DNA from: Candidatus Marinacidobacterium sp.
GTDB taxonomy: Bacteria > Acidobacteriota > Vicinamibacteria > Marinacidobacterales > Marinacidobacteraceae
Direction: 5' to 3'
NCBI GenBank assembly: GCA_965220965.1
Contig: OZ244852.1
Span: 2,779,472 to 2,843,471 of the forward strand
Length of the DNA: 64,000 nt
Part shown: positions 15,373 through 64,000 of the stretch, piece by piece
How the letters are laid out: every line of letters begins with the position of its first letter
How positions within the stretch are numbered: the first letter of the stretch is position 1
The notes under the pieces: generated by a model
What the model was told of the DNA's origin: nothing
The model's input: the letters and a program-made list of their open reading frames with translations, nothing else
Database searches by the model: none
Translations under genes and position numbers: made by a program

Positions 15373-15386
15373 GGTGGTCAGGGAGG

Positions 15387-17447
15387 CTATCGGCCCGCGT
15401 AGAGCCGGCGGACGGCGGCGGCGAGCCGCGCCGGGAATCCGGCGTCCCCGATCGTGAGGAGCGCGTCGAGCGCGTCCTCGCGGCGGCCCTCGGCCTCCGC
15501 CACCCGTCCCAGGTTGTAGCGGACCGCGGCCTCGTCGACCGGAGCGCCCGGCCCGGTCCGGGCGGCCGCCCGCCGGAACGCCTCGCCCGCGGCCCCGTAG
15601 TCCCCGGCCCGGAAGGCCTCGAGCCCCGCAAACAGCGCCGCCGCCTCCGGCGGCTCGCTCCCGCCGTCCACCCGCCGCCAGATCCACGGTCCCTCGTTGT
15701 CCGTCGAATCACCACCCGCTTCAACGAGCTGGGACACCCGGACGACCGGCATCCGGTGCGCAACGACCGCCGGGCATTCCTCCCGGAAGCCCCCGTCGCC
15801 GGAGATCCAGCCCACGCACCCGTCGCCCTCGGGCGGGCGACGCAGGAAGAGGAATCCGTCCTCTCCCGAAACGACCCCCTCGGCGCGCCCTTCGGACGCC
15901 GCCAGCGCCTCGAGCTGGCCGCCGATCCTCCCGGCGAGGACGACCCGCGTCCCGTCGCCGCGCTCGTACTCCCGCTGGAATCCGACCGTCTCCTCCTCGA
16001 CCGCGATCCGCGTCCGGGCCCCCGGCACGGCGCGGACGATCTCCGGGTCGAGCGTCTGCGCCGCGGCGAGGCCCTCCTCGCCGAACCCCGGCCAGGCGGC
16101 GGCCAGCAGTCGCACCCGGGCCGCGTCGCCCGTCCTCAGCTCCGCGGTCAGCGGGAGGAGGCGCCGGGCGTAGGCCGCCGGATCGGCGGCTTCCCGCAGT
16201 CCGCCCCGCACCCCGCGGAGCAGCAGGTCACCGAGATCCTCCAGCGGCTCGACCCCGGCCTCCAGCGCCGGGAGGGCTTCGAGCAGGCGGGCCGGGTCGT
16301 CGGCCAGATTGACGAGCGGCGTCTGGCTGTCCGGGACCGGTGAGTCTTCGAGGAACCGGAAGAGCGCGGCCAGCGGTCGCGGCGCCCCGTCGAGCGAGAG
16401 CCGCCAGACGGAGAGGCCCGACCGCGCCACCAGGAACAGTTGCTCTCCGACGCCCGGCGGAGGGTCGAGGTCGCCCGCCGGGAACGGGACGACCGCGCGG
16501 CGGACGGAATGCCCGATCGGGCGGCCCTCGAGGCCCGACCGTCCGGCGGCGGTCCCCGGCTGCGGCCGGAACAGCCCGGCGCCGGTGAGCCCGGCGATCT
16601 GCATGAGGACCGGGAGGTCCTCGTCGGCGGAGGCGGCGAGCAGGTCCACGCTCTGGCCGCGAAGCGCGGCCTGGAGTTCCGAGACGACGCCGCCACAGCC
16701 GCCGCAACCGTCGCCGGAGAAATAGAGCAGCAGCCGCCGCCCCTCGCCGAACGACTGTTCGCTGGACCAGACCCCGCCCTCGACTGCGACCGAAGCCGGC
16801 GGAAAGACCTCGTCGAAGGGCGTGACCCCATCGGGGAGCCCGGTGCGCCGACCGCTCGCCGCGCGAAACCGGGCCCGGTCGAGCGCCGCCGCGAGCCCGG
16901 CCTCGGTCCGGAAGGCCCCGGAGTCGCGCAGCTCCGACAGGACTTCGTCGCGGGTCGCGCGGTCTTCGGCGGCGTGGGTCCACGCCTCGAGCAGCCAGGC
17001 GACCCGGTCTCCCACCGGGATCCCCGGGAGCCCGGCGAGACGCCGGTAGACCGCGGCGCCCGGAGCGAGTTCCGTCGCGCGGCGGAGTTCCTGTTCCGCC
17101 CCGGGCGCATCGCCGGCCGCGGCCAGCGCCGCCCCCAGCGTGGCGCGGTAGCGCGCCCGTTCGCCCCGGTAGGCCGCCGCCGCCGCCCCGGTGAACTCGT
17201 CGAGGACGAGCCCCCCTTCAGGGGCGACCGAGCTCCACTCCGGCGGCGAGAACTCGCGCGAAGCGGTCAGCGCGCCCCAGGCGGCCTCGACCGCGCCCGG
17301 TCCGTCCCCCGCCTCGAGGAGGCGGATTGCCTCGGCGTGTTCCGCCGCGCCCGGAGGCTGGCCGGCGGCCGCGAGCGGCGCCAGCCAGGCGGCGAGTGAA
17401 GCGGCGAGGACGACCGCGGCGCGCGCCCGCCGTCTTCCGCTCAGCAA
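15387..17447 (-). CDS. Secreted hypothetical protein (Ala-rich helical / TPR-like, contains GDGCGGCGG)
   Basis: The start was trimmed to the TTG (LLSGRRRARAAVVLAASLAAWLAPLAAA, a signal peptide) 4 nt after the aminotransferase stop. The ORF-track extension to 17879 would overlap the upstream gene by ~440 nt. Confidence 0.55.
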   Translation of the reverse strand: MLSGRRRARAAVVLAASLAAWLAPLAAAGQPPGAAEHAEAIRLLEAGDGPGAVEAAWGALTASREFSPPEWSSVAPEGGLVLDEFTGAAAAAYRGERARYRATLGAALAAAGDAPGAEQELRRATELAPGAAVYRRLAGLPGIPVGDRVAWLLEAWTHAAEDRATRDEVLSELRDSGAFRTEAGLAAALDRARFRAASGRRTGLPDGVTPFDEVFPPASVAVEGGVWSSEQSFGEGRRLLLYFSGDGCGGCGGVVSELQAALRGQSVDLLAASADEDLPVLMQIAGLTGAGLFRPQPGTAAGRSGLEGRPIGHSVRRAVVPFPAGDLDPPPGVGEQLFLVARSGLSVWRLSLDGAPRPLAALFRFLEDSPVPDSQTPLVNLADDPARLLEALPALEAGVEPLEDLGDLLLRGVRGGLREAADPAAYARRLLPLTAELRTGDAARVRLLAAAWPGFGEEGLAAAQTLDPEIVRAVPGARTRIAVEEETVGFQREYERGDGTRVVLAGRIGGQLEALAASEGRAEGVVSGEDGFLFLRRPPEGDGCVGWISGDGGFREECPAVVAHRMPVVRVSQLVEAGGDSTDNEGPWIWRRVDGGSEPPEAAALFAGLEAFRAGDYGAAGEAFRRAAARTGPGAPVDEAAVRYNLGRVAEAEGRREDALDALLTIGDAGFPARLAAAVRRLYAGR

Positions 17448-18622
17448 ACGGCGGGGAGCCGCCGCAACCGTTCGACAGCCTCCTCGAGCGTCTTCCGGGT
17501 CTTGCAGAAGGTGAAGCGGAGCCGCTGCGCGCCGGCCGCCGGGTCGGCGTAGAAGCTGGATCCCGGCACCGCCGCGACGCCCACCGTCTCGACCAGGTGG
17601 CGCGCGAAGTCGGTGTCCGAGCTCCACCCGAACCCCGAGATGTCGGTCATCACGTAGTAGGCCCCCGCCGGCGGAAAGCACCGGAACCCCGCCTCGGTCA
17701 GCCCGGCGATGAGGAGATCCCGCCGCTCCTGGTAGCCGCTCCGCAGACTCTCGTAGTAGGAGTCCGGCAGCCGGAGCGCGGCGGCGCCGGCCTCCTGGAG
17801 CGGGGCCGCCGCCCCGACGGTGAGGAAGTCGTGGACCTTGCGGATCGCGCCGGTGATCGCTTCCGAAGCCATCGTCCACCCCACCCGCCAGCCGGTCACC
17901 GAGTAGGACTTGGAGAGGCCGCTGATCGTGACCGTCCGGTCCTCCATCCCCGGAAGCGAGGCGATGGGAAGGTGGACGGCCCCGTCGTAGGTGATGTATT
18001 CGTAGATCTCGTCGGTGAACACCAGCAGGTCGCGCTCCACCGCGAGCGCGGCGATCTGCTCCAGCTCGGACCGGGAGAACACCTTGCCGCTCGGGTTCTG
18101 CGGCGTGTTCACGATGATCGCCCGGGTCCGGGGACCGATCGCCGCCCGCAACTCGTCGAGGTCGAGCGAGCCGTCGGGCTCGTGGAGCCGGACGTAGCGC
18201 GGCGCGGCGCCCGAGAGCACGGTGTCCGGGCCGTAGTTCTCGTAGAACGGCTCGAAGACGATGACTTCCTCGCCCGGGTCCACGAGCGCCAGCATCGTCG
18301 CGATCATGGCTTCGGTCGAGCCGCAGGTCACCGTGATGTGCCGCTCGGGATCGAAGTCGAGGCCGTAGACCTGCCGGTAGCGGTCGGCCAGCGCCTCGCG
18401 AAGCGGTTTCGCTCCCCAGGTGATCGCGTACTGGTTGATGTCCTTGCGGATGGCCCGGACCGCGGCCTCCTTGATTTCGGGGGGCGCCGGAAAGTCCGGC
18501 ATCCCCTGCGCCAGGTTGACCCCGCCGCGCCGCATCGAGAGCCGGGTCATCTCGCGGATGACCGACTCGGTGAACTGCCGGGCCTTCGCGCTCGCCGGCT
18601 GACGCGCCGCGAGCGGGCTCAC
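17441..18622 (-). CDS. Pyridoxal-phosphate-dependent aminotransferase, class I/II
   Basis: Its GTG start overlaps the Slt stop (GTGA). The sequence ARQFTESVIREMTRL...NLAQGMPDF...SGLSKSYSVTGWRVGW (the PLP lysine region) is typical of Asp/Met/kynurenine aminotransferases. Confidence 0.85.
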   Translation of the reverse strand: MSPLAARQPASAKARQFTESVIREMTRLSMRRGGVNLAQGMPDFPAPPEIKEAAVRAIRKDINQYAITWGAKPLREALADRYRQVYGLDFDPERHITVTCGSTEAMIATMLALVDPGEEVIVFEPFYENYGPDTVLSGAAPRYVRLHEPDGSLDLDELRAAIGPRTRAIIVNTPQNPSGKVFSRSELEQIAALAVERDLLVFTDEIYEYITYDGAVHLPIASLPGMEDRTVTISGLSKSYSVTGWRVGWTMASEAITGAIRKVHDFLTVGAAAPLQEAGAAALRLPDSYYESLRSGYQERRDLLIAGLTEAGFRCFPPAGAYYVMTDISGFGWSSDTDFARHLVETVGVAAVPGSSFYADPAAGAQRLRFTFCKTRKTLEEAVERLRRLPAVC

Positions 18623-21388: not shown

Positions 21389-22282
21389 GTGACTTTCGGG
21401 CGTTCGCTCGGCCGCGGCGCCAAGCAGGCTCTTGCCGGCGCGGCGCTGAACAGATTCCTGCTGCAGAAATACGGGCGAACCTGGGACGATGCTCCGATAC
21501 CGGGGGTTGGCCTCAAGGATCTGGATGGCCGCGCCTTCGAGGAGTTTCGCCAGCGCGGCGCGAAGAGTCAGCGACTGCCGACGGACATTCTGAGCGAGCC
21601 CGACGATGGGGTCATCGAGAGGCTCCAGTTGCGCGAGGCTGCGCTCCTGAAGCGGGCCGCAGTGCTGCTCTTTCATCCCGCGCCGCATCGGGTCGTGATG
21701 GAGGCCTGCGTCAAGATCGGCTATTTCCGTGGATCCGAGTTGCTGTTTCAGGACGTGGTCGAAGGCGACCTGTTCACGCAGGTCGACCGGGCCATGGACC
21801 TGCTGTTCACGAAGTACACGCGAGCGCTGGTTTCGTACGACGGCGTGTACCGCGTCGAGAATGTACCGGTGCCGCGCGCCGCCATGCGCGAGGCGATCAT
21901 CAATGCGGTCATTCATCGGGATTACGCCAGCGCAACCACGATTCAGATCCGCGTCCACGACGACCGGATCGCCATCTGGAATGCTGTGCAGTTGCCCTCC
22001 GACTGGATTGCGGATCAGCGCGCCGGGAAACTGTCGTCAAGGCCCCACAACCCCCGGATCGCCTACGCCTTTTTCCGGGCCGGGATGATCGAAGCGTGGG
22101 GACGTGGCGTCCAGCGCATCGCGGACCTGTGTCTGGAGGCTGGCAACCCGCGGCCAGAGTGGGAGCTCCAGTCCGGTGGCGACGGACTCTGGCTGCGATT
22201 TCCGTTTTCGGCGACCTACCGGTCCGCCGATCCGGCGGCGCATGGCGCGGAGGACAGCGGCGGCGCGCCGGTTCCGAACTAG
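21389..22282 (+). CDS. AlbA_2/HATPase_c_4 family protein (putative RecG-like ATPase/regulator), N-terminally truncated paralogue
   Basis: It aligns to the middle and C-terminal part of the full-length paralogue at 47178..48608 (…REAVANAICHRDY… vs …REAIINAVIHRDY…). The N-terminal AlbA_2 domain is missing. It lies directly downstream of ssrA, and it may be a pseudogene remnant. Confidence 0.6.
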   Translation: MTFGRSLGRGAKQALAGAALNRFLLQKYGRTWDDAPIPGVGLKDLDGRAFEEFRQRGAKSQRLPTDILSEPDDGVIERLQLREAALLKRAAVLLFHPAPHRVVMEACVKIGYFRGSELLFQDVVEGDLFTQVDRAMDLLFTKYTRALVSYDGVYRVENVPVPRAAMREAIINAVIHRDYASATTIQIRVHDDRIAIWNAVQLPSDWIADQRAGKLSSRPHNPRIAYAFFRAGMIEAWGRGVQRIADLCLEAGNPRPEWELQSGGDGLWLRFPFSATYRSADPAAHGAEDSGGAPVPN

Positions 22283-22905: not shown

Positions 22906-24105
22906 ATGAAGAACAACCGCAGAAGCTTCTTCGGGTCCCTGGCGGGGCTCGGAGCGGCGGCGGCGGCGCCTCGCTCGCTGTTCGCCCAGTCCGGCGGAGG
23001 GGGCAGCGAACCCGTCCCCGTCGTCCACCCCGACCTGAACACGCTCAAGCCGCGGCGGGTCAACGAAGACGGGGTCAACAAGGAGTTCCACATCATCTGC
23101 GAGCCGGTCAAGCGCGAATTCGTGCCCGGCCGCACGATCGACTGCTGGGGCTTCAACGGGACCTGCCCCGGTCCGACGATCGAGGTCACCCAGGGAGACC
23201 GGGTGCGGCTCGTCGTCGAAAACCGGCTGCCGGAAGCCTTCTCGATGCACTGGCACGGCTTCGAGATCCCGATCGACATGGACGGCGTGCCCGGAGTCAC
23301 CCAGGACCCGATCCCGCCGGGCGGGACGTTCGTCTACGAGTTCGACCTCCATCAGCACGGCACGTTCTTCTACCACTCCCACTTCCCGATGCAGGAGCTG
23401 ATGGGCATGATCGGCCTGTTCATCATGCATCCCAAGGAGGCCTACCGGCCGACCGTGGACCGGGACTACGGGATGATCCTCCAGACGTGGGACCTCAAGC
23501 CGAACGCCACGATCCCGGCCACCCTCGGGATGAACTTCAACTGGCTCACGATCAACGGGCGGGCCGGACCGCATACGACCCCGCTGCTCGCCAAGCTGGG
23601 TGAGCGCGTGCGGTTGCGGATGGTCAACCTCAGCTCGATGCACCATCCGATCCACCTCCACGGCTTCACCTTCCAGACGGTGGGCACCGAGGGTGGACGG
23701 ATGCCGGAGTCCACCTGGGAACCGGGCAACACCGTCCTCGTGGGCGTCGCGCAGGCGCGGGACGTCGAGTTCAAGGCGGAGTACCCCGGCGACTGGATGA
23801 TCCACTGCCACCTGCCGCACCACATGATGAACCAGATGGTCGCGCTCGTGGGGCCGCGTCACATGGCCCACATGGAGCACGGTGGCGGCCAGATGGATGC
23901 CGCTGCGGCCATGGAGGTGCCCGGGTTCCGTCAGGACATGTTCATGCCCATGGACGAAGCGGTTGCGAAGCCCGAGACCCGCGGCATGCGGCCGACCTGG
24001 TCGGCGGGCATCATGGGCATGATGAGCGTGGTTCGGGTTCTGGACGAGGCGACCTTCGACTCGATCCAGGCCGAGATCGCCGCCGGCGGCGGAGGAGACG
24101 CGTGA
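22906..24105 (+). CDS. Multicopper oxidase (CopA/CueO-like), Tat-secreted
   Basis: It has a Tat motif (NRRSFFGSLAGLGAAAAAP). Copper ligand motifs HWHG, HSH, HPIHLHG and HCHLPHHMMNQM are present, and there is a Met-rich C-terminal segment (MAHMEHGGGQMD...MFMPMD). An RBS gggaga precedes the start. Confidence 0.9.
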   Translation: MKNNRRSFFGSLAGLGAAAAAPRSLFAQSGGGGSEPVPVVHPDLNTLKPRRVNEDGVNKEFHIICEPVKREFVPGRTIDCWGFNGTCPGPTIEVTQGDRVRLVVENRLPEAFSMHWHGFEIPIDMDGVPGVTQDPIPPGGTFVYEFDLHQHGTFFYHSHFPMQELMGMIGLFIMHPKEAYRPTVDRDYGMILQTWDLKPNATIPATLGMNFNWLTINGRAGPHTTPLLAKLGERVRLRMVNLSSMHHPIHLHGFTFQTVGTEGGRMPESTWEPGNTVLVGVAQARDVEFKAEYPGDWMIHCHLPHHMMNQMVALVGPRHMAHMEHGGGQMDAAAAMEVPGFRQDMFMPMDEAVAKPETRGMRPTWSAGIMGMMSVVRVLDEATFDSIQAEIAAGGGGDA

Positions 24106-25421
24106 TGGTTCGCCTTCCAATGACCCTGGGAGCCGCCGCGCTGGCGGTCGGGCTGGCCGCGCCCGCGGCGCTCGCCCAGGAAATGACCCTCGAAGACCTC
24201 CAGCGGATCGCGCTGGAGCGCAACCCGACCCTCGTCCAGGTCGATGGGCGGCTGCGCGCCGCGATGGCCGACTCGGACCAGGCCGGACTCTGGCCCAACG
24301 TCCACGTCGCCTACGCAACGGAGACGGTGAACGGCCACGAGTCCCACGGCGTCTTCTTCCGGCAGACGCTTCCCATCAGCGGCATCATCGGAGCTTCCCG
24401 CAGGGTGCACGACCGCGACGCCGATCTCGCCCGGGCCCTCGTCCAGGAGCAGCAGATGAAGGTGGCGACTTCGGTCCGGCTGCTCTATCGCGAGGCGCTC
24501 ATGGCCGAGCACCACATTGCGCTCCAGGAAGAAGTCGTCGAGCATCTCGAGGAAGTCCTGGTGACGATCAAGCAGCTCATGAACGTCGGGCTCGAGGACC
24601 CGACCGATGTGCTCGAGACCGAGATCAAGATCCAGCATGCGCGCCTCGACCTCAGCGAGGAGCGCCTCGAGCAGCGGCACATCTGGACCGAGCTGGCGCA
24701 GATGGTGGGCGACCCCTCGCTCACGATGCAGCCGCTGGCGGGGGACGCGCTCGAGCTGCCGCCCGAGCTCGATTACGACACGGAGCTCGACCGGATGCTG
24801 ACGAACAGTCCGGAACTCGAGAAGGTGCGGATGGACATCGCGCGTGGCGAGGCCGCCGTCGGGTTCGAGCGCACCGAGACGCGGCCCGACCTCGGAGTCA
24901 CGCTCGGTCGCCGCTACAACCGCGGACTCATCGGGTTCGGTCACGAAACCGAGGTTCTTCCGTCCTGGGAGCTGGCGCTGGAGCTTGATCTTTCCGCACC
25001 GATCTGGAACCGGAACCAGCACGGGATCCGGGCCGCCGAAGAAGATGTTCGCATGGCGCGGGCGGATCTCGACCGCGAAATCCTCCACCTTCGGTCCAAG
25101 TTCGCGGACGAGTTCCACGAGTACCAGATCGAACGGGATGAGGCCCGGGTCTACCGCGAGGAGATCCTGCCCCGGGCCGAGCAGGTCCACGAACTGGCGC
25201 TCGGTCGGTACATGGATTTCGGCGAGGACTACGGCGAAGTGCTCGAGGCGAAGGGGCACATCCTCGAGGTGCGCGGCGAGATCCTCCATTCGCTGTCCGA
25301 GGCCTGGCATCACACCGTGATGATTGAGGGGATGCTGCTCCACGGCGGCCTCCTGGTTCCGGAGTTCGAGATCCTCGAGAACACCGGGATGGGCAGCGCC
25401 GACACGCCGTACACCAGGTAG
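24102..25421 (+). CDS. TolC-like outer-membrane efflux protein (OMF family)
   Basis: Its start overlaps the multicopper oxidase stop (ATGA). It has a signal peptide and the two coiled-coil/beta-barrel repeats typical of CusC/TolC. Confidence 0.82.
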   Translation: MMVRLPMTLGAAALAVGLAAPAALAQEMTLEDLQRIALERNPTLVQVDGRLRAAMADSDQAGLWPNVHVAYATETVNGHESHGVFFRQTLPISGIIGASRRVHDRDADLARALVQEQQMKVATSVRLLYREALMAEHHIALQEEVVEHLEEVLVTIKQLMNVGLEDPTDVLETEIKIQHARLDLSEERLEQRHIWTELAQMVGDPSLTMQPLAGDALELPPELDYDTELDRMLTNSPELEKVRMDIARGEAAVGFERTETRPDLGVTLGRRYNRGLIGFGHETEVLPSWELALELDLSAPIWNRNQHGIRAAEEDVRMARADLDREILHLRSKFADEFHEYQIERDEARVYREEILPRAEQVHELALGRYMDFGEDYGEVLEAKGHILEVRGEILHSLSEAWHHTVMIEGMLLHGGLLVPEFEILENTGMGSADTPYTR

Positions 25422-25548: not shown

Positions 25549-25737
25549 CTTAACAGTCTGTTGATGAAGTCCCGTGCAGCGCCGAGAGCGGTGAGGCGCC
25601 CGGCCGGCAAGGCGCGTGAGCGAGGAATATCGGCAATATTCCGAGCGAAACGGAACGATGAGCGCCCCACAGGGGCGCGGTTCGGCCGGGATGGATCGCC
25701 GCTCGAACGCCGCGTGACTTTGTCAACAGGCTGTTAG
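25549..25737 (-). repeat. ~190 bp MITE-like element, copy 1 (inverted relative to copy 2)
   Basis: It is ~90% identical to the reverse complement of 48593..48782. Its termini form an imperfect 22-bp inverted repeat (CTTAACAGTCTGTTGATGAAGTC ... GACTTTGTCAACAGGCTGTTAG). It has internal hairpins GGAATATCGGCAATATTCC and GCGCCCCACAGGGGCGC. Confidence 0.6.
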
Positions 25738-36904: not shown

Positions 36905-36989
36905 GCCGGAGTGGCGGAACTGGTAGACGCACGGGACTCAAAATCCCGCGATCCTTGCGATCATGAGGGTTCGAACCCCTCCTTCGGCA
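36905..36989 (+). tRNA. tRNA-Leu (anticodon CAA)
   Basis: It has the acceptor pair GCCGGAG/CTTCGGC, the D-arm GGAACTGGTAG, the anticodon loop CTCAAAA, a long variable arm and the T-arm GGGTTCGAACCCC. CCA is encoded at 36990..36992. Confidence 0.9.
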
Positions 36990-37038
36990 CCAGGCGCCGC
37001 GCCGCACCGCGTCGGAGCCGTCCTCTCCCGTCGTCGCC

Positions 37039-37377
37039 ATGATCCATCCCGAACTCCTCGAGATCCTCTGCTGCCCCGAGACGAAGCAGCCGGTGCGCCT
37101 GGCTTCGGGCGCGGTGCTGGATCGTCTCAACCGGCTGCAGCAGGACGGCGAACTCGCCAGCGAGGGCGGGGCCCCGGTGAAGGCGCCGATCCAGGCGGGT
37201 CTGGTCCGGGAGGACGGGCGTTTTCTCTACCCCGTCCAGGACGACATCCCGATCATGCTGATCGAGGAGCGGATCCCGATTCCCGAGGAATCCGGGGCCG
37301 CGTCCGGTTCAGAGGACCAGATTGAACAGGACCGCGATCCCCAGCATCATGAAGTGGATGCCGACTCCGGGACCTGA
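37039..37377 (+). CDS. Trm112-family protein (UPF0434/YcaR-like)
   Basis: …LEILCCPETKQPV…DGRFLYPVQDDIPIMLIEE is typical of Trm112p-like proteins. The C-terminal ~30 aa look unstructured and overlap the convergent gene. Confidence 0.65.
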   Translation: MIHPELLEILCCPETKQPVRLASGAVLDRLNRLQQDGELASEGGAPVKAPIQAGLVREDGRFLYPVQDDIPIMLIEERIPIPEESGAASGSEDQIEQDRDPQHHEVDADSGT

Positions 37378-42291: not shown

Positions 42292-42397
42292 GGAAGACCT
42301 CCGGGGAGAAGAGCGGCGGGGGCGCCACGGCGCGGCCGGGAAATCCGGCGACGCCGAACCCCGTAGCATACGGGCGGCGAGCGCCGCCCCGGCTGAC

Positions 42398-42515
42398 TCA
42401 GGGCCTGAACGGCGAGGGATCCACGCTCGGCGGGGTCCCGTCGGCGAGTTCCTGGACGTGTAGTCCGGTCCCGAGCGACTGGGTGAAGCCGAGCATGCCG
42501 TGCCCGGCGGCGACG
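42398..42515 (+). repeat. 118-bp direct-repeat copy A (duplicate of the 3' end of the FAD-oxidoreductase gene)
   Basis: It is ~96% identical to 42831..42948, with 5 mismatches, and includes an in-frame stop on the minus strand. Confidence 0.85.
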
Positions 42516-42516
42516 C

Positions 42517-42834
42517 GTGTGGCAAGCTAGGGAATCGGCGGGCGGCTTTCGCCCGAGCCAGACAATGGAACCGTTGCCCGAAGTAGCCCCGATGACGAGT
42601 GCGGAAAAGGCCCGCCGCGAGGCGGAAGTCGCGGCCTTCTGGGACGCCGTCGCTCGGCGGCTGCGACGCCGACCTCCTCCGGACCCGCTGCTCGAGGGCT
42701 TCCGTTCCGCGTTCGACCTGAGTCCGCGCTGGCGCCGGACGTGGCTCTCGGAAAGCGAGGGAGCCTGGGCGGACTGGGTTGGGCTTGGCTGCGACCTGCG
42801 GCGGGCGATCCGGAAGGCGCCTCCTCGGTCCTAA
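42517..42834 (+). CDS. Hypothetical small protein lying between the two 118-bp direct repeats
   Basis: The ORF runs exactly from repeat A to repeat B. There are no recognisable motifs. Its status as coding is uncertain. Confidence 0.3.
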   Translation: MWQARESAGGFRPSQTMEPLPEVAPMTSAEKARREAEVAAFWDAVARRLRRRPPPDPLLEGFRSAFDLSPRWRRTWLSESEGAWADWVGLGCDLRRAIRKAPPRS

Positions 42835-42948
42835 GGCCTGAACGGCGAGGGATCCACGCTCGGCGGGGTCCCGTCGGCGAGTTCCTGGATGACCAGTCCG
42901 GTCCCGAGCGACTGGGTGAAGCCGAGCATGCCGTGTCCGGCGGCGACG
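42831..42948 (+). repeat. 118-bp direct-repeat copy B (native 3' end of the FAD-oxidoreductase gene)
   Basis: See copy A. Confidence 0.85.
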
Positions 42949-47177: not shown

Positions 47178-48608
47178 ATGTCCGGTACCGTTAGGGCTCC
47201 GATGACGCGCGGACAGATCGCCGAATGGGTGGCCGCAGGAGAGTCAGAGACCCAGGAGTTCAAGCGCACAACCGGCCAGCGGCGAGCGGCGGCCAAGGCT
47301 GTCTGCGGGATGCTGAACCATCGCGGCGGGCGGGTTCTGTTCGGCGTGACTCCTGCGGGCGAAGTCGCCGGGCAGCGAACTGGAAGGGACACGCAGGAGG
47401 ACATTTCCCAGGAGCTGCAGCAGATCGACCCGCCGGTCTTCCCCGACATCGACCAGGTCGACGTCGGGGACTCGCTGGTCGTGATCGTCGTGACCGTTCC
47501 CACCGGGACGAATCGTCCGTACAGCTATCGGGGCCAGGCGTACCGGCGCGTGGGCAGGACGACGCTGTCCCTCTCCGGGGACGAGTACAACCGGATGTTG
47601 CTGGAGCGGCTCCACGGTGACTCGCGCTGGGAGACCGAGGAGGCCGCCGGGTGGGACATCGCCGATCTCGATCACGATCAGATCGCCGCAACGGCCGAAG
47701 AGGCGGTGCGGCGCGGGCGCTTGGAAGAACCCGGTACGCGGGCGGCGGAGCCGCTGCTGCGCGGCCTCGGCCTGCTGCGTGGGCGAACGGTTCTGCGGGC
47801 GGCGGTCGCGCTCTTCGGCCGCCGACAACGGCTCGCCACGGAGTACCCGCAGTGTCTCCTGAGGGTCGCCAGGTTTCGGGGGACGACTCGGACGGCGTTC
47901 CTCGACAACCGACAGGTCCACGGCAACGCCTTCGATCTGCTCCACGCCGCGCAGCGCTTCCTGGTGGAGAGCTTGCCGATCGCTGGCCGTGTTGTCCCGC
48001 ACCTCTTCGAGCGGGTCGATGATCCGCTGTATCCGCCGGAGGCCCTGCGGGAGGCCGTGGCGAATGCGATCTGTCATCGCGACTATGCGGCGGGAGGCGG
48101 ATCGATCGGGATCGGCATCTACGACGACCGCCTCGAAGTTACGTCAACCGGCGGACTTCCCTTCGGACTGACGCCGGAGATGCTGTTCGAGCCGCACGAG
48201 TCCCGGCCCTGGAATCCCCTGATCGCCGGCGTCTTCTTCCGTCGGGGGATCATCGAAAACTGGGGTCGCGGAACGCTCCGGATGGCGGAGCTCACCGAGA
48301 GCGCCGGACTTCCTCGCCCGGAGATCGAGGACCAGGCGGGCGCCGTTACGGTGCGCTTCCGACCAGGCCGCTACATCGCCCCCCAGCGGATCGGACGCGA
48401 TCTGACCGAACGACAACGGGCGATCCTGACGATCCTCGGCGAGGCGCCGGAGGGGGTCGCCGTGCGGGACCTCCGGGCTCGTCTGGTGAATGGCTCCACG
48501 GCGCGGCAGGTCGGCAAGGACCTCCAGACACTCCGGGCCCTCGGACTGGCTCTCCCCGCCGGACGGGGACGGGGCGCGCGCTGGCGCCGAGCTCAAGCAG
48601 CCCGTTGA
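47178..48608 (+). CDS. AlbA_2 (divergent-AAA) + HATPase_c_4 + C-terminal wHTH protein (RecG-C-terminal-like putative ATPase/transcriptional regulator; Schlafen-like)
   Basis: The N-terminus (…ESETQEFKR…LNHRGGRVLFGV…) matches AlbA_2. The middle region (…ALREAVANAICHRDY…) matches HATPase_c_4. The C-terminal …LTERQRAILTILGEAPEGVAVRDL… looks like a wHTH. It is full-length relative to the truncated paralogue at 21389. Confidence 0.8.
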   Translation: MSGTVRAPMTRGQIAEWVAAGESETQEFKRTTGQRRAAAKAVCGMLNHRGGRVLFGVTPAGEVAGQRTGRDTQEDISQELQQIDPPVFPDIDQVDVGDSLVVIVVTVPTGTNRPYSYRGQAYRRVGRTTLSLSGDEYNRMLLERLHGDSRWETEEAAGWDIADLDHDQIAATAEEAVRRGRLEEPGTRAAEPLLRGLGLLRGRTVLRAAVALFGRRQRLATEYPQCLLRVARFRGTTRTAFLDNRQVHGNAFDLLHAAQRFLVESLPIAGRVVPHLFERVDDPLYPPEALREAVANAICHRDYAAGGGSIGIGIYDDRLEVTSTGGLPFGLTPEMLFEPHESRPWNPLIAGVFFRRGIIENWGRGTLRMAELTESAGLPRPEIEDQAGAVTVRFRPGRYIAPQRIGRDLTERQRAILTILGEAPEGVAVRDLRARLVNGSTARQVGKDLQTLRALGLALPAGRGRGARWRRAQAAR

Positions 48609-48782
48609 CAAAGTCCCGCGGCGTTCGAGCGGCGATGCATCCCGCCCGAACCACGCCCCTTCGGGGCGCTCATCGTTGCGTTTCGCTCGGAATATTCCCG
48701 ATATTCCTCGCTCACGCGCCTTGTCGGCCGGGCGCCTCACCGCTCTCGGCGCTGCACGCGACCTTATCAACGGACTGCTAGG
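48593..48782 (+). repeat. ~190 bp MITE-like element, copy 2; its left end overlaps the last codons of the AlbA_2 gene
   Basis: See copy 1. It begins …AGCAGCCCGTTGACAAAGTC and ends GACCTTATCAACGGACTGCTAGG. Confidence 0.6.
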
Positions 48783-48822
48783 CGGCGCTGGGTGTGGGAC
48801 GACGCCACGGAGGTTGGTGAGG

Positions 48823-48938
48823 CCATTGGGAAACCATTCGGGCCAATTCCGGAACAATTCGGAACAATTCGGGGCCAATTCGGAACCATTCGCGGAACCA
48901 TTCGGAACAATTCCGGGACAATTCGGAACCATTCGAGG
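48823..48938. repeat. Tandem array of ~11 degenerate 10-11-bp units (consensus ~AAC(A/C)ATTCGG), i.e. ~10.5-bp phasing
   Basis: ccattgggaaa|ccattcggg|ccaattccgg|aacaattcgg|aacaattcgggg|ccaattcgg|aaccattcgcgg|aaccattcgg|aacaattccggg|acaattcgg|aaccattcgagg is seen directly. The antisense ORFs across it are repeat artefacts. Confidence 0.8.
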
Positions 48939-48943
48939 CGATC

Positions 48944-49213
48944 ATGCCCATCACGCCCGGTTCGACCGCCAAGCGAAAGATCAGGCTGCGCCAGGAGGCG
49001 CGGCGGACGCCGGTAGCCCCGCCTGACGACACGGTGGATCAGGAACTCCAGCGTGACGGCGAGGACCACGTCGAGGCCGGACCGGCCACGGCGGTGTCCG
49101 CGGCCTTCGGGCTGCTCGCTCGGCCGGGCGCGGCGCCACAGTCCATCGAGGCGCTGAACGAAGCGATCAGCGCCGGATGGGCCGGTGAGACGCCTCCATC
49201 AGGAAAGCGCTGA
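48944..49213 (+). CDS. Hypothetical small protein (weak ParD/RHH-antitoxin-like C-terminus: …SIEALNEAISAGWAGE…)
   Basis: The ORF begins immediately after the tandem array. The similarity is only to the eye, so both its coding status and its family are uncertain. Confidence 0.25.
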   Translation: MPITPGSTAKRKIRLRQEARRTPVAPPDDTVDQELQRDGEDHVEAGPATAVSAAFGLLARPGAAPQSIEALNEAISAGWAGETPPSGKR

Positions 49214-49336
49214 ACGCGATCTGGCGCGTCAATCAGGGTCAGACGCGCGCGGCAATCAGGATGAGACGCTGAACGCCGGTCGCGAGGGCGGGTGGGCGAG
49301 CCTTCACTGGGGCGCGGTGTGATGTCTCGCTCAAGT

Positions 49337-49379
49337 CATTGGTGCACATCACACGTGACATGGGCAATATGCACCAATG
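49337..49379. promoter_or_regulatory. Inverted repeat CATTGGTGCACAT-N17-ATATGCACCAATG (12/13 match) enclosing CACGTG; the right arm contains the start codon of the COG1373 ATPase
   Basis: Seen directly in the sequence. An operator or translational-control function is inference. Confidence 0.35.
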
Positions 49380-50573
49380 GTCCCTCGTCGAGCGCGAACT
49401 CTCGTCGACCGGATGCTCCGCCTGGAGGCCGCTGTTGGTCTGCTTGGGCCGCGCCAGGCGGGGAAGACGACGCTCGCGCTCGCGATCGCAGCCTCCCGGG
49501 ACGCCGTCTACCTGGACCTCGAGCGGCGCGAGGACCGCGCCGCCCTCGCCGACCCGGCGCGGTTCTTGGCCTCGCAGGAGGACCGGCTGGTCATCCTCGA
49601 TGAAGTGGGCCACGTTCCCGAGCTCTTTGGGGAGCTCCGGGGCCTGATCGACGACGGCCGCCGCCGCGACCGTGGCCTGAGCCGCTTTCTCATCCTCGGA
49701 TCGGCCGCCGTTCCTCTCCTGCGCCAGTCGGAGAGTCTCGCCGGCCGCATCGGCTGGGTGGAGCTTGGACCCCTCGACGTTCTCGAGGTCGACGACGCGG
49801 AACCGGTGGAGCGGCTCTGGGTTCGAGGGGGCCTGCCGCGCAGCTACCTCGCCGAGACCGACGCCGACAGCCTCACGATCCGGACGAACCTGATCGGAAC
49901 GGTGCTGGGGCGCGACCTCCCGCACTTCGCCCCACGCCTCCCCATCGAGACCGTGGACCGGCTATGGGCGATGCTGGCCCATGGCCAGGGAACGCAGCTC
50001 AACCTCTCGCAATTGGCTGGAAGCCTTGGCGTGAGCACTCCCACCGTTGGCCGGTACGTGGATCTGCTCGTGGACCTTCTCCTCGTGCGTCGCCTTCCGC
50101 CCTGTCTCCCGAACCTCCGGAAGCGTCTCGTCAGGTCTCCCCGGCTCTACCTGCGGGATCCGGGGCTGCTCCACGCGCTGCTCGGCATCGGGGACCTGAA
50201 CGCCCTCCTTCGCCACCCCGTCGTCGGCGCAAGCTGGGAGGGCTTCGTGATCGAGACCCTCCTCGCCGCCGCTCCGCCGCGCACCCAGGCGTCCTTCTAC
50301 CGGACGGCGCGCGGCGCCGAAGTTGATCTGGTCCTCCACCTGCCCGGGCGCGCCACCCCCTGGGTGGTCGAGGTCCGCCACGGCGCGGCGCCGAAGCTCA
50401 CCCGCGGATTCCACTCCGCGTGTCACGATCTGGCGCCGGAGCGGGCGTTCGTGGTCCACGCGGGGTCCCGTCGCTTTCCGCTCCCAGGTGGCGCCGAGGC
50501 GATCCCCCTCCGGGCGATGGCGCGCCTGCTCGCTGGGAGCGCGGCCCCCGCCGGCGAGGCTCTCAAGGGTTGA
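49377..50573 (+). CDS. AAA+ ATPase of the COG1373 / DUF4143 family
   Basis: It has Walker A LLGPRQAGKTTLA and Walker B …LVILDEVGHVPELF. The C-terminal DUF4143-like region is rich in conserved Arg/Asp. Confidence 0.8.
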   Translation: MVPRRARTLVDRMLRLEAAVGLLGPRQAGKTTLALAIAASRDAVYLDLERREDRAALADPARFLASQEDRLVILDEVGHVPELFGELRGLIDDGRRRDRGLSRFLILGSAAVPLLRQSESLAGRIGWVELGPLDVLEVDDAEPVERLWVRGGLPRSYLAETDADSLTIRTNLIGTVLGRDLPHFAPRLPIETVDRLWAMLAHGQGTQLNLSQLAGSLGVSTPTVGRYVDLLVDLLLVRRLPPCLPNLRKRLVRSPRLYLRDPGLLHALLGIGDLNALLRHPVVGASWEGFVIETLLAAAPPRTQASFYRTARGAEVDLVLHLPGRATPWVVEVRHGAAPKLTRGFHSACHDLAPERAFVVHAGSRRFPLPGGAEAIPLRAMARLLAGSAAPAGEALKG

Positions 50574-50645
50574 ACGGGGTGTGGCGCGAACCGCCATCAG
50601 TCTCGCCGGGTCTTCTGACGCCGACGCCCCCCTGCGCTCCCTAAG

Positions 50646-51329
50646 TCAACCGCAGAGCGCGTCCAGAATCGGACCGACGACCGACTTTGCGCGACAGGTC
50701 TCCGCGGCGCGCCAGATCTCTGCTGGGCTCGCCTTCCGGTCCCACAGCGCGTCCCGCATCGCTTCGAGCGCCACATCCTTCCCCACGAGCCGACGGAAGC
50801 GAAAGCAGTCCACGACCGTCCGGGCCGGGTTTGTGATCCAGGCGGGCGCGCCCTCGAACTCGATGCGCTCGACGCCATAGCGGAGCGACGCCCCGGAGAA
50901 GCGGATGACCCGTACGGGAAGCTCGGGGATCCGGGGCGCGCGGGCCTTGTGCGGGATCGCGATCCACACGCGTCGCGGGAGCTGGGTCCCAAGCTCGTGA
51001 ACGCTCAGCGCGGTCAGCAGGCAGACGATGCCGCTCGGGACGCGCGCGCAGACCGCCGCTTCGGTGTGGTGCTCAGTCACCTCCGCGTCACGCCAGCGAT
51101 ACAGCCCTCTCGCCACCCGCTCAACCGAGCCGTCTTCCCTGAGTCGCCGGAGAGTGCGCGCACTCATGCCGGCGGCGAACGCGTCCCTACGCCGGAAGAA
51201 GGCGGCTCGGCGCAGGTTCGGTTCCGGTTGCTGTGGACGTTCGGAAACGTCGGCAACAAGAGCTGGGCGCCGACTTTTTGGGCGGAGTTCCCGGTCGACC
51301 TCGCGTTGCTCCGGCGACGGGACGGGCAC
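50646..51329 (-). CDS. AbiEi-family (type IV toxin-antitoxin antitoxin / transcriptional regulator) domain protein, without an adjacent AbiEii
   Basis: …AAFFRRRDAFAAGMSARTLRRLREDGSVERVARGLYRW… matches the AbiEi_4 N-terminal wHTH. The C-terminal domain is conserved. The start was trimmed to an in-frame GTG, which is uncertain; the ORF extends to 51476 but that stretch is Pro/Arg-rich. Confidence 0.68.
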   Translation of the reverse strand: MPVPSPEQREVDRELRPKSRRPALVADVSERPQQPEPNLRRAAFFRRRDAFAAGMSARTLRRLREDGSVERVARGLYRWRDAEVTEHHTEAAVCARVPSGIVCLLTALSVHELGTQLPRRVWIAIPHKARAPRIPELPVRVIRFSGASLRYGVERIEFEGAPAWITNPARTVVDCFRFRRLVGKDVALEAMRDALWDRKASPAEIWRAAETCRAKSVVGPILDALCG

Positions 51330-51728
51330 GGGACTCACGGTGGGGCGCCAGCCGGTGAACGGAGCCAGCGAGAGCCAGCCGAGTGGCTCGGCGCGGTTCG
51401 GAGGAAATTGCTCTCTCCCGCTGCGGTCGGACCGAACGGCGCCGCGAACGGTGACGCGAATCGCTACGCGCCGCAAACGGGATGGTGGCGCGCCCGCAGG
51501 GCCGTGGCCCTCGCGTGACCCTCCGCCTGGAACGGCCGCTCACGAAGTCGAATCACGTTCAGCCCGGGGGCGTCGCGGAGGAGCCCCGCTTCCTGGGAGG
51601 TGGCGCGGGCGGTGGCTTCGGCTTCCGAATGCGACCTGGATGGGGCGTCACCGCCCTCCCCGGTCGCTCGCGGCCCTGTCGACCCGGCGGAGGCACTGGT
51701 TCCCTTGCCACGGTAACTCCCTTACTCC

Positions 51729-52229
51729 TCAGGCAGGCTTCGGGCCTTCTGTGACGTCGGTCGCTGGGTCCGAAGCTCTTCGCAGCCACCCGATGATCTC
51801 GTCGCGCCCCTGGTCCAGGGGTCTCGACGTGGCGCTCTCGCCTCCAGCATGGTCTGCGCACCACGAGGCCGCTCCGGTCGGTTCGAATTCGACTTCGATA
51901 TCCACGCCGCGTCGCTGCCACTCGAGTTGCACGCCACCCGGCGCCGTCGGTACGACGGCTGGCGCGGCCAGGTTCGGGACCAGGGCGACCATCGAAACCA
52001 GGAAGGCGATGGCCTCCTCGATGGCCTCCTCTTTGGGAGTCGCTGCGTTGTAGGAGTTCCAGCCCTTCGGAAGACCCTTCAGCCGTACGGCTGAACGAAT
52101 GGAGTCCAGAATCGGGACCGGCAGGTTGAGGCGACCGACACGGATTCGCGCTTCCGCATCCGGGCGCAACGAAGTATCCGCAGCGTTGTGCGGACGCCGG
52201 CCCCCCGGTTCTTCGGTCACCGCGCCCAC
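51729..52229 (-). CDS. Hypothetical protein
   Basis: 166 aa with non-repetitive, balanced composition (…LPKGWNSYNAATPKEEAIEEAIAFLVSMVAL…). No family was recognised. Confidence 0.45.
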   Translation of the reverse strand: MGAVTEEPGGRRPHNAADTSLRPDAEARIRVGRLNLPVPILDSIRSAVRLKGLPKGWNSYNAATPKEEAIEEAIAFLVSMVALVPNLAAPAVVPTAPGGVQLEWQRRGVDIEVEFEPTGAASWCADHAGGESATSRPLDQGRDEIIGWLRRASDPATDVTEGPKPA

Positions 52230-62237: not shown

Positions 62238-63353
62238 TCAGCGGGGCCATCGCTCGGGCTGTGGTCGACCGCCGATTTCGTTCTTCTCCCAGAGCTCGCC
62301 GAGGCTGAACTCTTCCAGCCACGGAGCAAGCGACTCCGGAGACTTCCGATCCAGAGTCGTGCTTCCGTTCCGCCGTTCCACGACGACCGCGTCTTCCGGG
62401 TCGAAGTGATCGAGCAGGGTCGGTGACTGGGTGGCGACGATCACCTGCGAGCCCGCCGAGGCGTGCCGGATCAGGTCGGCGAGCAGCGTCACCGCCGCGG
62501 GATGGAGTCCAAGTTCCGGTTCGTCAACCAGGATGACCGCCGGTCGCAGTTCCGTCGGCGACAGGAACAGGGTCGTGAGTGCGATGAATCGAAGCGCGCC
62601 GTCCGAGAGCGCCGCGCCGTCGAACTCATCGTCGGCCTTCTGATGCCGCCAGCGGAGCCGGACCATCTCCTCGTTCTCCGGGAGGGGGCTCAGGTCGAAA
62701 TCGTCGAAGAAAGGGGCCGCGAGACGGATCGTGTCCCGGATCAGCGTGTACGTGGCGCTGTAGCGCTCCCTGAGACGGAGGAGGAAGGGCGCCAGATTCG
62801 CTCCGTCTTCGTCGAGATCCCGGTTGTCGGTAATCCCGCCGTGCTTCAGCATCGGTGAGCCCCGGCCAGTGTGATGGAAGTGGTAGCGCCGGAAGCGGTC
62901 CAGGCGACCCTGGAGCGAGCGCACCGGGCCGGAGCGGACGTCCTCGCTGATGCCCGGCTCCCCCCGGACGCCGTGGAGCTGGACTTCCGTCGTCTGCCCG
63001 GACCCGCGCGTCTCCTCGAAGCGAATGAACTCTTCGAGCGGGTACAACGTGTCGTCGTCCCGAATCCCCAGCACAATCGAGTATTCGTTGGTCCCGTTGG
63101 CGAATCCGATCTGGAGGCGGATCCGTTCCGTGCGCTCCGTTCCCACATGGAGCAGCCGGGCCGCGCCTCCCCTCTCGAGGACATAGAGCCGCAAGCGGCC
63201 GCGCCGGATCGCCCGGAGCAGCGAGAAAGCCTCAAGGATGTTCGACTTGCCTGCGCCGTTGGCTCCCACCAGGACGTTCACCGGGCGCAGATCCAGGGTG
63301 AGTTTCCGGATGCTCCGGAAGCCCTCGATCCGGATCGAGTCGATTCCTGTCAT
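62238..63353 (-). CDS. AAA_21/OLD-like ABC-type ATPase (N-terminal ATPase domain only, ~371 aa)
   Basis: The start was trimmed to MTGIDSIRIEGFRSIRKLTL… (the RecF/OLD-like opening). It has Walker A GANGAGKSN, an ABC signature-like LSDGALRFIAL and Walker B ILVDEPELGLHP. No TOPRIM or nuclease domain is present. Confidence 0.75.
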   Translation of the reverse strand: MTGIDSIRIEGFRSIRKLTLDLRPVNVLVGANGAGKSNILEAFSLLRAIRRGRLRLYVLERGGAARLLHVGTERTERIRLQIGFANGTNEYSIVLGIRDDDTLYPLEEFIRFEETRGSGQTTEVQLHGVRGEPGISEDVRSGPVRSLQGRLDRFRRYHFHHTGRGSPMLKHGGITDNRDLDEDGANLAPFLLRLRERYSATYTLIRDTIRLAAPFFDDFDLSPLPENEEMVRLRWRHQKADDEFDGAALSDGALRFIALTTLFLSPTELRPAVILVDEPELGLHPAAVTLLADLIRHASAGSQVIVATQSPTLLDHFDPEDAVVVERRNGSTTLDRKSPESLAPWLEEFSLGELWEKNEIGGRPQPERWPR

Positions 63354-63373
63354 GTCGCGTCCGGCGTCGTCCC

Positions 63374-64000
63374 TCAGGCGTCCCATCGCACCCGCACTTC
63401 CTTCGGGCCGCGGAACTCGAAGCCGCGGAGTTCTACCTCGCTCTCCGGGTCGAGGCGGAGGTTGGGAAGCCGCCGGAACAGGCGCTCCGCGCCCACCCGG
63501 ATCTCCTGGCGGCCGAGCCACTCGCCGATGCACCGGTGCGCGCCGAGCGCGAACGCGGCGTTGCCGCCCTCGGTCCGCGCGAGGTCGATCCGCTCCGGGT
63601 CTTGGAACCGGGCGGGGTCGAGGTTCGCCGAGCGCAGCACGCCCGCCACCAGCGCTCCCTCGGGCAGCGGCGTCCCTCCCAGCTCCGTGGGCTCGGTGGT
63701 CTGCCTGGTGATCGTGCCCACCGGCGTGTAGCGCCGCAGCACCTCGTCCACCAGCCGCCGCATCGCCGCCGGGCTCGAGAGCGCCTGCTCCCGCAGGTCG
63801 TCGCGGGTGAGCAGCGTCCAGACCACGAGCCCGATCCCGTCGCGGGGTTCGTTGATGCCCCCGGAGATCATGAGCCGGACGTTGTTCACGATCTCGGCCG
63901 CGGAGAGCTTCTCCTCGGCGCGCAGGAAGTGAAGCAGTCCCGACGCCTCGGGGCGGGCGCGAAGCTCCTCGAGCCGCCCGAGCACCGCGGTCTCGACCGC
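63374..64000 (-). CDS. Cytochrome P450, C-terminal portion; the gene continues beyond the window end
   Basis: It has the heme-binding loop FALGAHRCIGEWLGRQE and the ExxR region (…DEVLRRYTP…). Confidence 0.8.
   Translation of the reverse strand, partial: AVETAVLGRLEELRARPEASGLLHFLRAEEKLSAAEIVNNVRLMISGGINEPRDGIGLVVWTLLTRDDLREQALSSPAAMRRLVDEVLRRYTPVGTITRQTTEPTELGGTPLPEGALVAGVLRSANLDPARFQDPERIDLARTEGGNAAFALGAHRCIGEWLGRQEIRVGAERLFRRLPNLRLDPESEVELRGFEFRGPKEVRVRWDA

Follow-up and report, generated by a model that had tools for sequence, protein, structure and literature searches.

A Schlafen-GHKL-winged-helix gene and its helically phased repeat array, separated by a MITE-like insertion, in a probable mosaic of acquired defence-associated genes

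Among prokaryotic Schlafen proteins, the HisKinase-HTH (helix-turn-helix) architecture accounts for 19% (10.1101/2025.07.24.666596), and the pair of Schlafen and GHKL domains was named 'Schlatpase' (10.64898/2026.05.29.728809). For Schlafen-histidine-kinase-winged-HTH (wHTH) proteins, an association with BREX-type systems was described in at least 1017 taxa (PMC12839542). Of the defence-enriched Schlafens, over half were linked to restriction-modification (R-M) or other nuclease systems, and the activation of the HisKinase-HTH members was stated to be unknown (PMC13462974). Here, a gene of this class was analysed in a 64,000-nt stretch of Candidatus Marinacidobacterium sp. DNA (contig OZ244852.1, positions 2,779,472 to 2,843,471; hereafter the window). 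The gene opens a segment of about 5 kb (47178-52229) that an earlier note had regarded as a candidate accessory or defence-like island. It was considered probable, with reasonable rather than high confidence, that this segment is a mosaic of four independent, horizontally acquired defence-associated genes, in which the Schlafen gene and a tandem repeat array make up one unit and two other genes are orphans.

The window protein shares with the published HisKinase-HTH or Schlatpase-HTH proteins (10.1101/2025.07.24.666596; 10.64898/2026.05.29.728809; PMC12839542; PMC13462974) the same three domains, the E-x4-(E/D)-x-K motif and, as a family, the proximity to R-M or BREX loci. It differs in that its own locus contained no R-M system and in that a repeat resembling a miniature inverted-repeat transposable element (MITE) lay between the gene and the array. 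No mention of a repeat array beside a HisKinase-HTH Schlafen gene was found in these four sources; the single use of 'repeats' concerned a CRISPR array. The three features concerned were as follows.

47178/47202-48608, plus strand: Schlafen (AlbA_2) RNase-like domain, GHKL ATPase (HATPase_c_4) and C-terminal winged helix (Pfam, alignment and structural model)
48598-48780, unstranded: MITE-like repeat of 183 nt (inverted copy at 25551-25733, terminal inverted repeats)
48821-48937, plus strand: 11 tandem units of GGAAC(A/C)ATTCG, on average 10.6 bp apart (window sequence and 26 other loci)

The array in the window consisted of ten ATTC-centred units and a degenerate first unit, with successive spacings of 10, 11, 10, 11, 10, 12, 10, 11 and 10. 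The motif occurred eight times against 0.5 expected and was found nowhere else in the window. The helically phased array of about 11 units (~10.5 bp) reported in the earlier note was hence confirmed at 48821-48937.

Further, the loci of Schlafen orthologues were compared. With the Schlafen protein as query, 45 loci were recovered from metagenomes, and look-ups added others. When Tandem Repeats Finder was applied to all fetched loci, the majority of them showed arrays with a period of 10-12 directly next to the Schlafen orthologue. The arrays began 0-40 nt 3' of the orthologue stop codon, had a fixed orientation and an (A/C/T)ATTC core, and showed a mean period near 10.5. A strict phasing test, for which a 5-mer had to occur three or more times in exact phase in the 150 nt 3' of the stop codon, was passed by 17 of 23 non-redundant Schlafen-GHKL-wHTH loci and by 2.0% of the control segments (5000 random 150-nt segments drawn from 80 unrelated loci). 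As a background, 11 arrays of comparable kind were counted in control DNA totalling 1.18 Mb. An array was also carried by each of three additional genomes picked by name, namely those of Verrucomicrobiota (nine units of CGTCCAATTG), Chloroflexota (about ten units of TGCCTATTCG) and Betaproteobacteria (CTGCTCATTCC-type units). It was concluded that the Schlafen-GHKL-wHTH gene and the array are a conserved two-part unit present across many phyla.

The sequences of the units differed between the orthologous loci and included GGCCAATTC(C/G), GTCGAATTCC, GGCTTATTCC, GCGTCCAATTC, TGGTCTTATTC and ACTCC(A/C)ATTCC. The number of units ranged from 2 to 15, the highest being recorded at locus L082 (units CCCATTCCGG/CTCATTCCCGG), where the period alternated between 10 and 11 as it did in the window. 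Arrays were present on both sides of the Schlafen gene at L083 and L084, and they were identical in the near-identical loci L092, L096 and L098, which came from different samples. In the closest relatives (L083 9700-9925, L084 at the same place, L086 2570-2740 and L114 11430-11600), blocks of decamers alternated with a spacer of ~40 nt containing AAGTCATTGA(A/C), yielding a higher-order repeat of array blocks. Repeats beside Schlafen-GHKL-HTH genes were not mentioned in the literature searched, of which the coverage was incomplete, so that this result reads as 'not found' and not as 'never reported'. The unit sequences of the arrays also gave no match in the literature search. The combination of the Schlafen gene and the array therefore appears to be undescribed so far.

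The MITE-like repeat was present in two copies in the 64 kb, inverted relative to each other and 92% identical. Its terminal inverted repeats were 11 nt long (CAGCCCGTTGA...TCAACGGACTG), and the ends paired on folding. The repeat is thus a short, non-coding, multi-copy element with terminal inverted repeats, as is characteristic of MITEs; no clear target-site duplication was seen at either copy. GRGARWRR(S/R) is the C-terminus of the Schlafen homologues, whereas the window protein runs on with AQAAR to a TGA stop codon located inside the terminal repeat of the MITE, and the DNA similarity of the window to the orthologues ends at 48589. Since the similarity stops at this point and the native tail is replaced, it was concluded that the extreme 3' end of the Schlafen gene was the insertion point of the MITE. 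The insertion at the stop codon separates the gene from its array, which lies ~210 nt from the stop codon, 183 nt of this distance being supplied by the MITE. The window array is best read as a displaced copy of the array found 3' of the orthologous genes.

The earlier note had described the AlbA_2, HATPase_c_4 and wHTH protein with its last codons overlapped by a MITE-like element, and this description agreed with the Pfam matches, the model and the repeat comparison. The protein and the array had been listed as separate items; both were real, but the fact that they are one conserved unit split by the MITE had been overlooked. Scans against Rfam and for promoters or terminators over the MITE and the array gave nothing. 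As a separate observation, the second MITE copy (25551-25733) occupied the intergenic space next to a TolC-like gene (24102-25421). The first letters of the element, GTTGACA, are similar to a -35 promoter box.

The presence of the array went with the type of C-terminal domain in the neighbouring protein. Four loci encoding proteins 57-66% identical to the window Schlafen protein carried a different C-terminal HTH (KTP...GPDKGGxW), had no array and abutted hsdR. In three of the four, the homology to the window protein ended near residue 395. Four 11-bp units of a different sequence, beginning at the stop codon, accompanied a member of 30% identity that has a further type of HTH. Array presence tracks the type of the C-terminal domain and not the Schlafen/GHKL part. 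In two loci of the array-less group (L105 2405-2460 and L111 4783-4832), a 12-nt repeat, GGGAAAACGACA, in ~4.5 copies was observed within the coding sequence, in the linker that precedes the alternative HTH.

The Schlafen gene product matched SLFN_AlbA_2 at 4.6e-20 and HATPase_c_4 (PF13749) at 4e-21 in Pfam. The public call of the gene was a 468-aa protein starting at 47202, the second Met of a 476-aa open reading frame (ORF), with a 100% match to P0001, and 47202 is probably the start. The gene was present on the 2.88-Mb contig and on a second contig of 32 kb in the same gene order. In the latter (L081, 4.45x coverage), the TonB-dependent receptor was split into several ORFs at 15139-18071, probably by assembly frameshifts. 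Residues E14, E19 and K21 of the E-x4-E-x-K nuclease motif were invariant in 12 homologues, and the CAMLN box and the GHKL N-box E..NA.CHRDY were invariant in the family alignment. Because the nuclease motif and the N-box are retained in the family, it is plausible that the RNase/ATPase is an active enzyme. A winged-helix fold of three helices and a beta hairpin was predicted for the C-terminal 65 residues (400-465), with predicted local distance difference test (pLDDT) scores of 76-87. The loop of the modelled hairpin was GRGRGA/GRGARW and was invariant in the family.

The orthologues were 60-77% identical across phyla and occurred in many different contexts. Among 72,556 plasmid records the family was matched by 3, and among 50,697 phage records by 2, so the suggestion that the gene family travels with mobile DNA was not borne out for plasmids or phages; two distant homologues out of these collections had no clear array. 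The truncated paralogue beside ssrA, which had also been pointed out in the earlier note, was verified.

21389-22282: ssrA-adjacent Schlafen paralogue, HATPase_c_4 only

A repeat of the ssrA 3' end, a possible island boundary at this second paralogue, was searched for and none was found. At locus L137 (5808-6830), a 340-aa gene with HATPase_c_4 only was located directly 3' of a full Schlafen gene and its array, and it was truncated like the window paralogue.

The remaining features of the 5-kb segment are listed below.

48944-49213, plus strand: ORF of 89 aa (orf89), a gene in the public record, without homologue
49337-49379: inverted repeat CATTGGTGCAcAT / ATaTGCACCAATG, seen in the sequence, the right arm of which contains the ATPase ATG
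49377-50573, plus strand: AAA_14 and DUF4143 ATPase (COG1373), the PADLOC candidate PDC-S01 (Pfam 2.4e-19 and 1.5e-39; PADLOC)
50646-51338, minus strand: AbiEi-family antitoxin or regulator without AbiEii (PADLOC AbiEi 6.6e-69; Pfam AbiEi_4 2.8e-11)
51729-52229, minus strand: 166-aa protein (orf166), member of a widespread family that has no Pfam entry (homologue search, PADLOC and model)

The ATPase matched PADLOC PDC-S01 at 9.6e-73 over residues 1-382, i.e. in full length, and is an ordinary stand-alone PDC-S01 candidate. The PADLOC PDC candidates, PDC-S01 and PDC-M32 among them, were defined as genes located inside BREX, DISARM or type I R-M (10.1101/2024.01.29.577857). The window gene gave a strong match to the hidden Markov model (HMM) of PDC-S01 (AAA ATPase and PD-(D/E)XK), but it was not embedded in any system. 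The earlier assignment to COG1373/DUF4143 held, and the 13-nt inverted repeat across the ATG (49337/49367) existed with one mismatch, but such repeats were not commoner than chance: eight were counted in the window, and 2-19 in Markov-chain controls. The repeat was rejected as a significant operator on these counts. A 23-bp direct repeat, GCGCGGCAATCAGGATCAGACGC, was noted in two copies at 49224-49269, ~110 bp upstream of the PDC-S01 start, and may be regulatory.

The small orf89 had been taken for a possible ribbon-helix-helix (RHH)/ParD-like gene. No match to it was obtained in the Pfam, NCBIfam, PHROG or PADLOC HMM libraries, and only the protein itself was found among 5.8 billion proteins; the RHH/ParD antitoxin assignment was rejected on both results. 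A coding-like GC pattern was confined to the first half of orf89, which is probably not a conserved gene.

The AbiEi gene was convergent with the ATPase gene, with 72 bp from stop to stop, and a tblastn search of the window with an AbiEii query was empty, both in agreement with the earlier description of a convergent AbiEi without its partner. The type IV toxin-antitoxin (TA) system AbiE consists of AbiEi and an adjacent AbiEii nucleotidyltransferase toxin, of which the former only was present here. The start codon is probably GTG at 51338 or 51329 and not the public ATG at 51167, because the AbiEi homology starts well upstream and the ATG at 51167 would cut the N-terminal HTH.

The 166-aa ORF, previously unclassifiable, proved to be a genuine gene, and its family is large: 2556 cluster representatives were matched at E<=1e-3. 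Every invariant residue of the family was kept in the window protein, and its model had pLDDT >90 in the core. The protein matched the C-terminal third of PDC-M32A at 1.8e-9 (model positions 266-338 of 375). The PDC-M32 candidate comprises PDC-M32A (~375 aa) and PDC-M32B, whereas the window held only the C-terminal domain of A and no B-like gene.

In two independent contexts, the homologue of orf166 (Y) was preceded by an overlapping gene of 220-255 aa without a Pfam match (X) and followed by a small gene (Z), and this X-Y-Z module stood beside type I R-M genes in both (L130 5241-6955; L133 5355-6958). The widespread Pfam-less family is hence part of a three-gene module found beside type I R-M loci. 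The Z gene of L133 matched PDC-M32B weakly (4e-4). The order at L133 was X-Y-Z-HTH-hsdM-abiEi-abiEii-hsdS, and its AbiEi was 68% identical to the window AbiEi over 212 aa. In the window, Y was followed after ~390 bp by AbiEi on the same strand. It was considered most likely that the AbiEi and the 166-aa protein are orphans left from an R-M-centred island like that of L133. At L130 (7028-10564), L131 and L132, a type I HsdR with a C-terminal SLFN_AlbA_2 fusion was observed adjoining the X-Y-Z module.

The segment was flanked by an esterase gene and trmB on the left and by a TonB-dependent receptor gene with a terminator hairpin on the right. The whole window had a GC content of ~70%, and the total GC of 47-52 kb was equal to that of the flanks. 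The GC content of third codon positions (GC3) of the four genes was 0.73-0.84, compared with a median of 0.91 in 35 other window genes (Mann-Whitney p=0.0012). The compositional deviation of a classical genomic island, which the earlier note had proposed to check for 47.1-52.3 kb, was seen in GC3 and not in total GC. Because of the lowered GC3, the four genes look acquired. Their accessory nature was borne out by this shift together with the many different contexts of their relatives. A low GC3 was also recorded for the ssrA-adjacent paralogue (0.80).

No integrase or recombinase was found among the window ORFs by ORF listing and HMM scans, no tRNA was located within 8 kb of the segment, and no direct repeats flanking it were found. 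The integrase, the tRNA or tmRNA target and the flanking repeats of a classical island are thus missing, and the segment is not one.

Additionally, several observations were made elsewhere in the window. An AAA_21/AAA_15 ABC-type ATPase gene (62238-63533, minus strand, GC3 0.79), of a type found in several defence systems, was probably also acquired. A small Trm112-like ORF (37039-37377, plus strand) directly after tRNA-Leu (36905-36992) had a GC3 of 0.81, below most window genes. A direct repeat of 131 nt (42385-42515 and 42818-42948; 90% identical, 433 nt apart) was situated near the start of a large BNR/sortilin-like gene and the neighbouring DAO gene.

The gene neighbourhoods of the orthologues were rich in defence functions. 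The Pfam families commonest among 105 orthologue neighbours were ResIII, DEAD, Helicase_C, Eco57I methylase, HSDR_N and Methylase_S. The arrangements included a DISARM-like one (SNF2 helicase, Schlafen gene, large Eco57I-type methylase), as well as hsdS-Schlafen gene-hsdM, hsdM...gene-hsdR and a type IIG enzyme next door. In a Chloroflexota metagenome-assembled genome the Schlafen gene lay between Kiwa and hsdR, and in a Betaproteobacterium it followed SIR2 and DUF87 genes and preceded hsdR. Together with the contexts of the orf166 relatives and the published definition of the PDC candidates (10.1101/2024.01.29.577857), these data supported the conclusion that all four families typically lie within or adjacent to R-M, DISARM or BREX loci.

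We therefore regard it as unlikely that the genes are ordinary cellular regulators and ATPases without a defence role, clustered by accident. Such an explanation could draw on the ~30% of prokaryotic Schlafen genes that lie away from known defence genes (10.1101/2025.07.24.666596), on the absence of an R-M system from the window, on the unvalidated status of PDC-S01, and on the position of the Schlafen gene 24-48 bp after trmB on the same strand. However, it leaves the strong enrichment of R-M, DISARM and Kiwa genes around the orthologues unaccounted for, as well as the low GC3 and the membership of two genes in TA or defence-candidate families. A defence role of the mosaic may be inferred from these contexts.

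The array was proposed to be bound, as DNA, by the C-terminal domain of the Schlafen protein itself, because the period is helical, the array is linked to the type of C-terminal domain, and this domain is modelled as a winged helix. The array would form a row of head-to-tail binding sites, one per helical turn, and several Schlafen copies would be aligned on one face of the DNA. The invariant GRGARW wing may read the AATT/ATTC minor groove. An Arg-Gly-Arg sequence would suit the narrow minor groove of AATT, by analogy with AT-hook and wing contacts. Binding to the array might control transcription around the Schlafen gene, or it might hold the RNase-ATPase inactive on DNA. The latter idea was suggested by SLFN-pAgo, of which the nuclease is kept off in a nucleic-acid-bound filament.

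A more elaborate form of this proposal is tentative and, in our estimate, rather doubtful. The stand-alone Schlafen-GHKL-wHTH protein would be stored as a head-to-tail filament on its private array, a DNA 'antitoxin' or docking platform that would silence the tRNase. Lost binding would then release an ATP-driven, active, tRNA-cleaving oligomer and lead to abortive infection. The triggers could be phage-induced degradation or remodelling of the host DNA, R-M cleavage products, or competing phage DNA.

A function of the array as RNA was also considered and was held to be quite unlikely. The repeats would then be transcribed as the 3' part of the Schlafen mRNA, and the RNase would be inhibited or occupied by this RNA, similarly to ToxI. 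In type III TA systems an RNase is paired with a tandem-repeat RNA, and the array lies so close to the stop codon (0-40 nt), with no terminator-like site between, that it could be co-transcribed with a gene whose Schlafen domain retains the RNase motif. On the other hand, the array follows the C-terminal HTH type and is missing beside the 57-66% identical members with another HTH, and the 10.5-nt period, which fits the DNA helix, is meaningless for RNA. The units of 10-12 nt are far shorter than known RNA antitoxin repeats, the array had no Rfam match, and the repeat array of ToxIN-like systems is located upstream of the toxin gene, whereas here it is downstream.

Very unlikely is the explanation that the array is not bound by a protein but is a site of slippage or recombination, either a phase-variation switch or a cassette boundary for entry into R-M operons. 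The variable unit number of 2 to 15 and the position of the array at the edge of a gene that recurs with 60-77% identity across phyla in many contexts would agree with it. However, the arrays of L092, L096 and L098 were identical in spite of their different samples, no recombinase accompanies the Schlafen gene, and the ATTC core and the helical period conserved across phyla suggest sequence-specific recognition.

The genes of the segment were then considered together. Homologues of AbiEi, orf166 or orf89 were found in none of 48 Schlafen loci. A PDC-S01 gene (53-60% identity) adjoined the Schlafen gene in one other lineage only (L083/L084), upstream instead of downstream; a 31%-identical one was located 7 kb away at L114, and the Schlafen gene stood alone among amidases at L082. 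Adjacency of the AlbA_2 and COG1373 genes, of which the earlier note had proposed to examine the co-occurrence, was thus limited elsewhere to that single lineage, with the opposite order, and the combination of genes was repeated at no other locus. The earlier note had left the choice between an uncharacterised module and a decayed island. The module found no support, and the decayed island fits better, because the AbiEi lacks AbiEii and the 166-aa protein lacks X and Z.

That all the genes constitute one new abortive-infection or regulatory multi-gene system is exceedingly improbable: they are tightly packed, and the Schlafen and PDC-S01 genes are adjacent with arrays between them both here and in L083/L084, yet the combination occurs nowhere else, its one repeated pair is reversed, the genes lie on both strands with a convergent pair, and each family is met alone in many contexts, two members here being without their usual partners.

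Several points weigh against the interpretation of the segment as a mosaic with a self-recognising gene-array unit. Six of the 23 loci fell below the strict phasing test, most of them with 2-3 units visible by eye, and an operator position 3' of its own gene is unusual. The Pfam HTH_11 match to the C-terminus of the window protein reached only E=0.063, and the AlphaFold model of the whole protein was poor (pLDDT 53), apart from its C-terminal domain. The remnant origin of the AbiEi and 166-aa genes is drawn from one related locus (L133), and no remnants of hsdM, hsdR, hsdS, AbiEii, X or Z were detected in the window or its gaps. A scan of a genome collection based on trmB returned relatives of at most 52% identity, mainly Planctomycetota, none of which had an island or flank gene. 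A PDC-S01 representative gave no protection against T4, T5 or T7 in one published test (10.1101/2024.09.26.614923).

The gene families of the segment are all already described as candidates. For annotation, the 'island' is to be read as orphaned defence-linked genes and not as a new system. The link between the array and the type of C-terminal domain offers a testable handle and points to a predicted DNA ligand for the sensor domain, and the Schlafen gene with its array gives direct experimental access to an abundant, uncharacterised class of Schlafens. In defence tests, the array may have to be included in the clone together with the Schlafen gene.

Direct repeats are known from other DNA-binding proteins. 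The winged helices of PhoB/OmpR bind head-to-tail direct repeats one turn apart, and the parC site of plasmid R1, with its ten repeats of 11 bp, is bound by ParR. In the promoter of a type I R-M system, RptR recognises three direct repeats (PMC12255303). The repeats of these systems are arranged head-to-tail one helical turn apart, as in the window array, and RptR is a regulator that stands close to R-M genes, as the Schlafen orthologues tend to. Their sites are located upstream, in promoters or centromeres, whereas the window array lies 3' of the gene; the window protein additionally has RNase and ATPase domains.

SLFN-pAgo of Runella zeae (RzAgo) has the same Schlafen and GHKL module as the window protein, and a weak PADLOC pAgo match of the latter was attributed to this common module. 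ATP drives the formation of RzAgo tetramers, in which the nuclease is on, and the tRNase is kept inactive in a filament bound to nucleic acid (10.64898/2026.05.29.728809). RzAgo senses through its Argonaute core and RNA guides; in the window protein a winged helix of 65 residues takes their place, with a DNA array as the possible scaffold. The filament storage proposed above, if true, would be a DNA-scaffolded counterpart of the inactive RNA-guided SLFN-pAgo filament.

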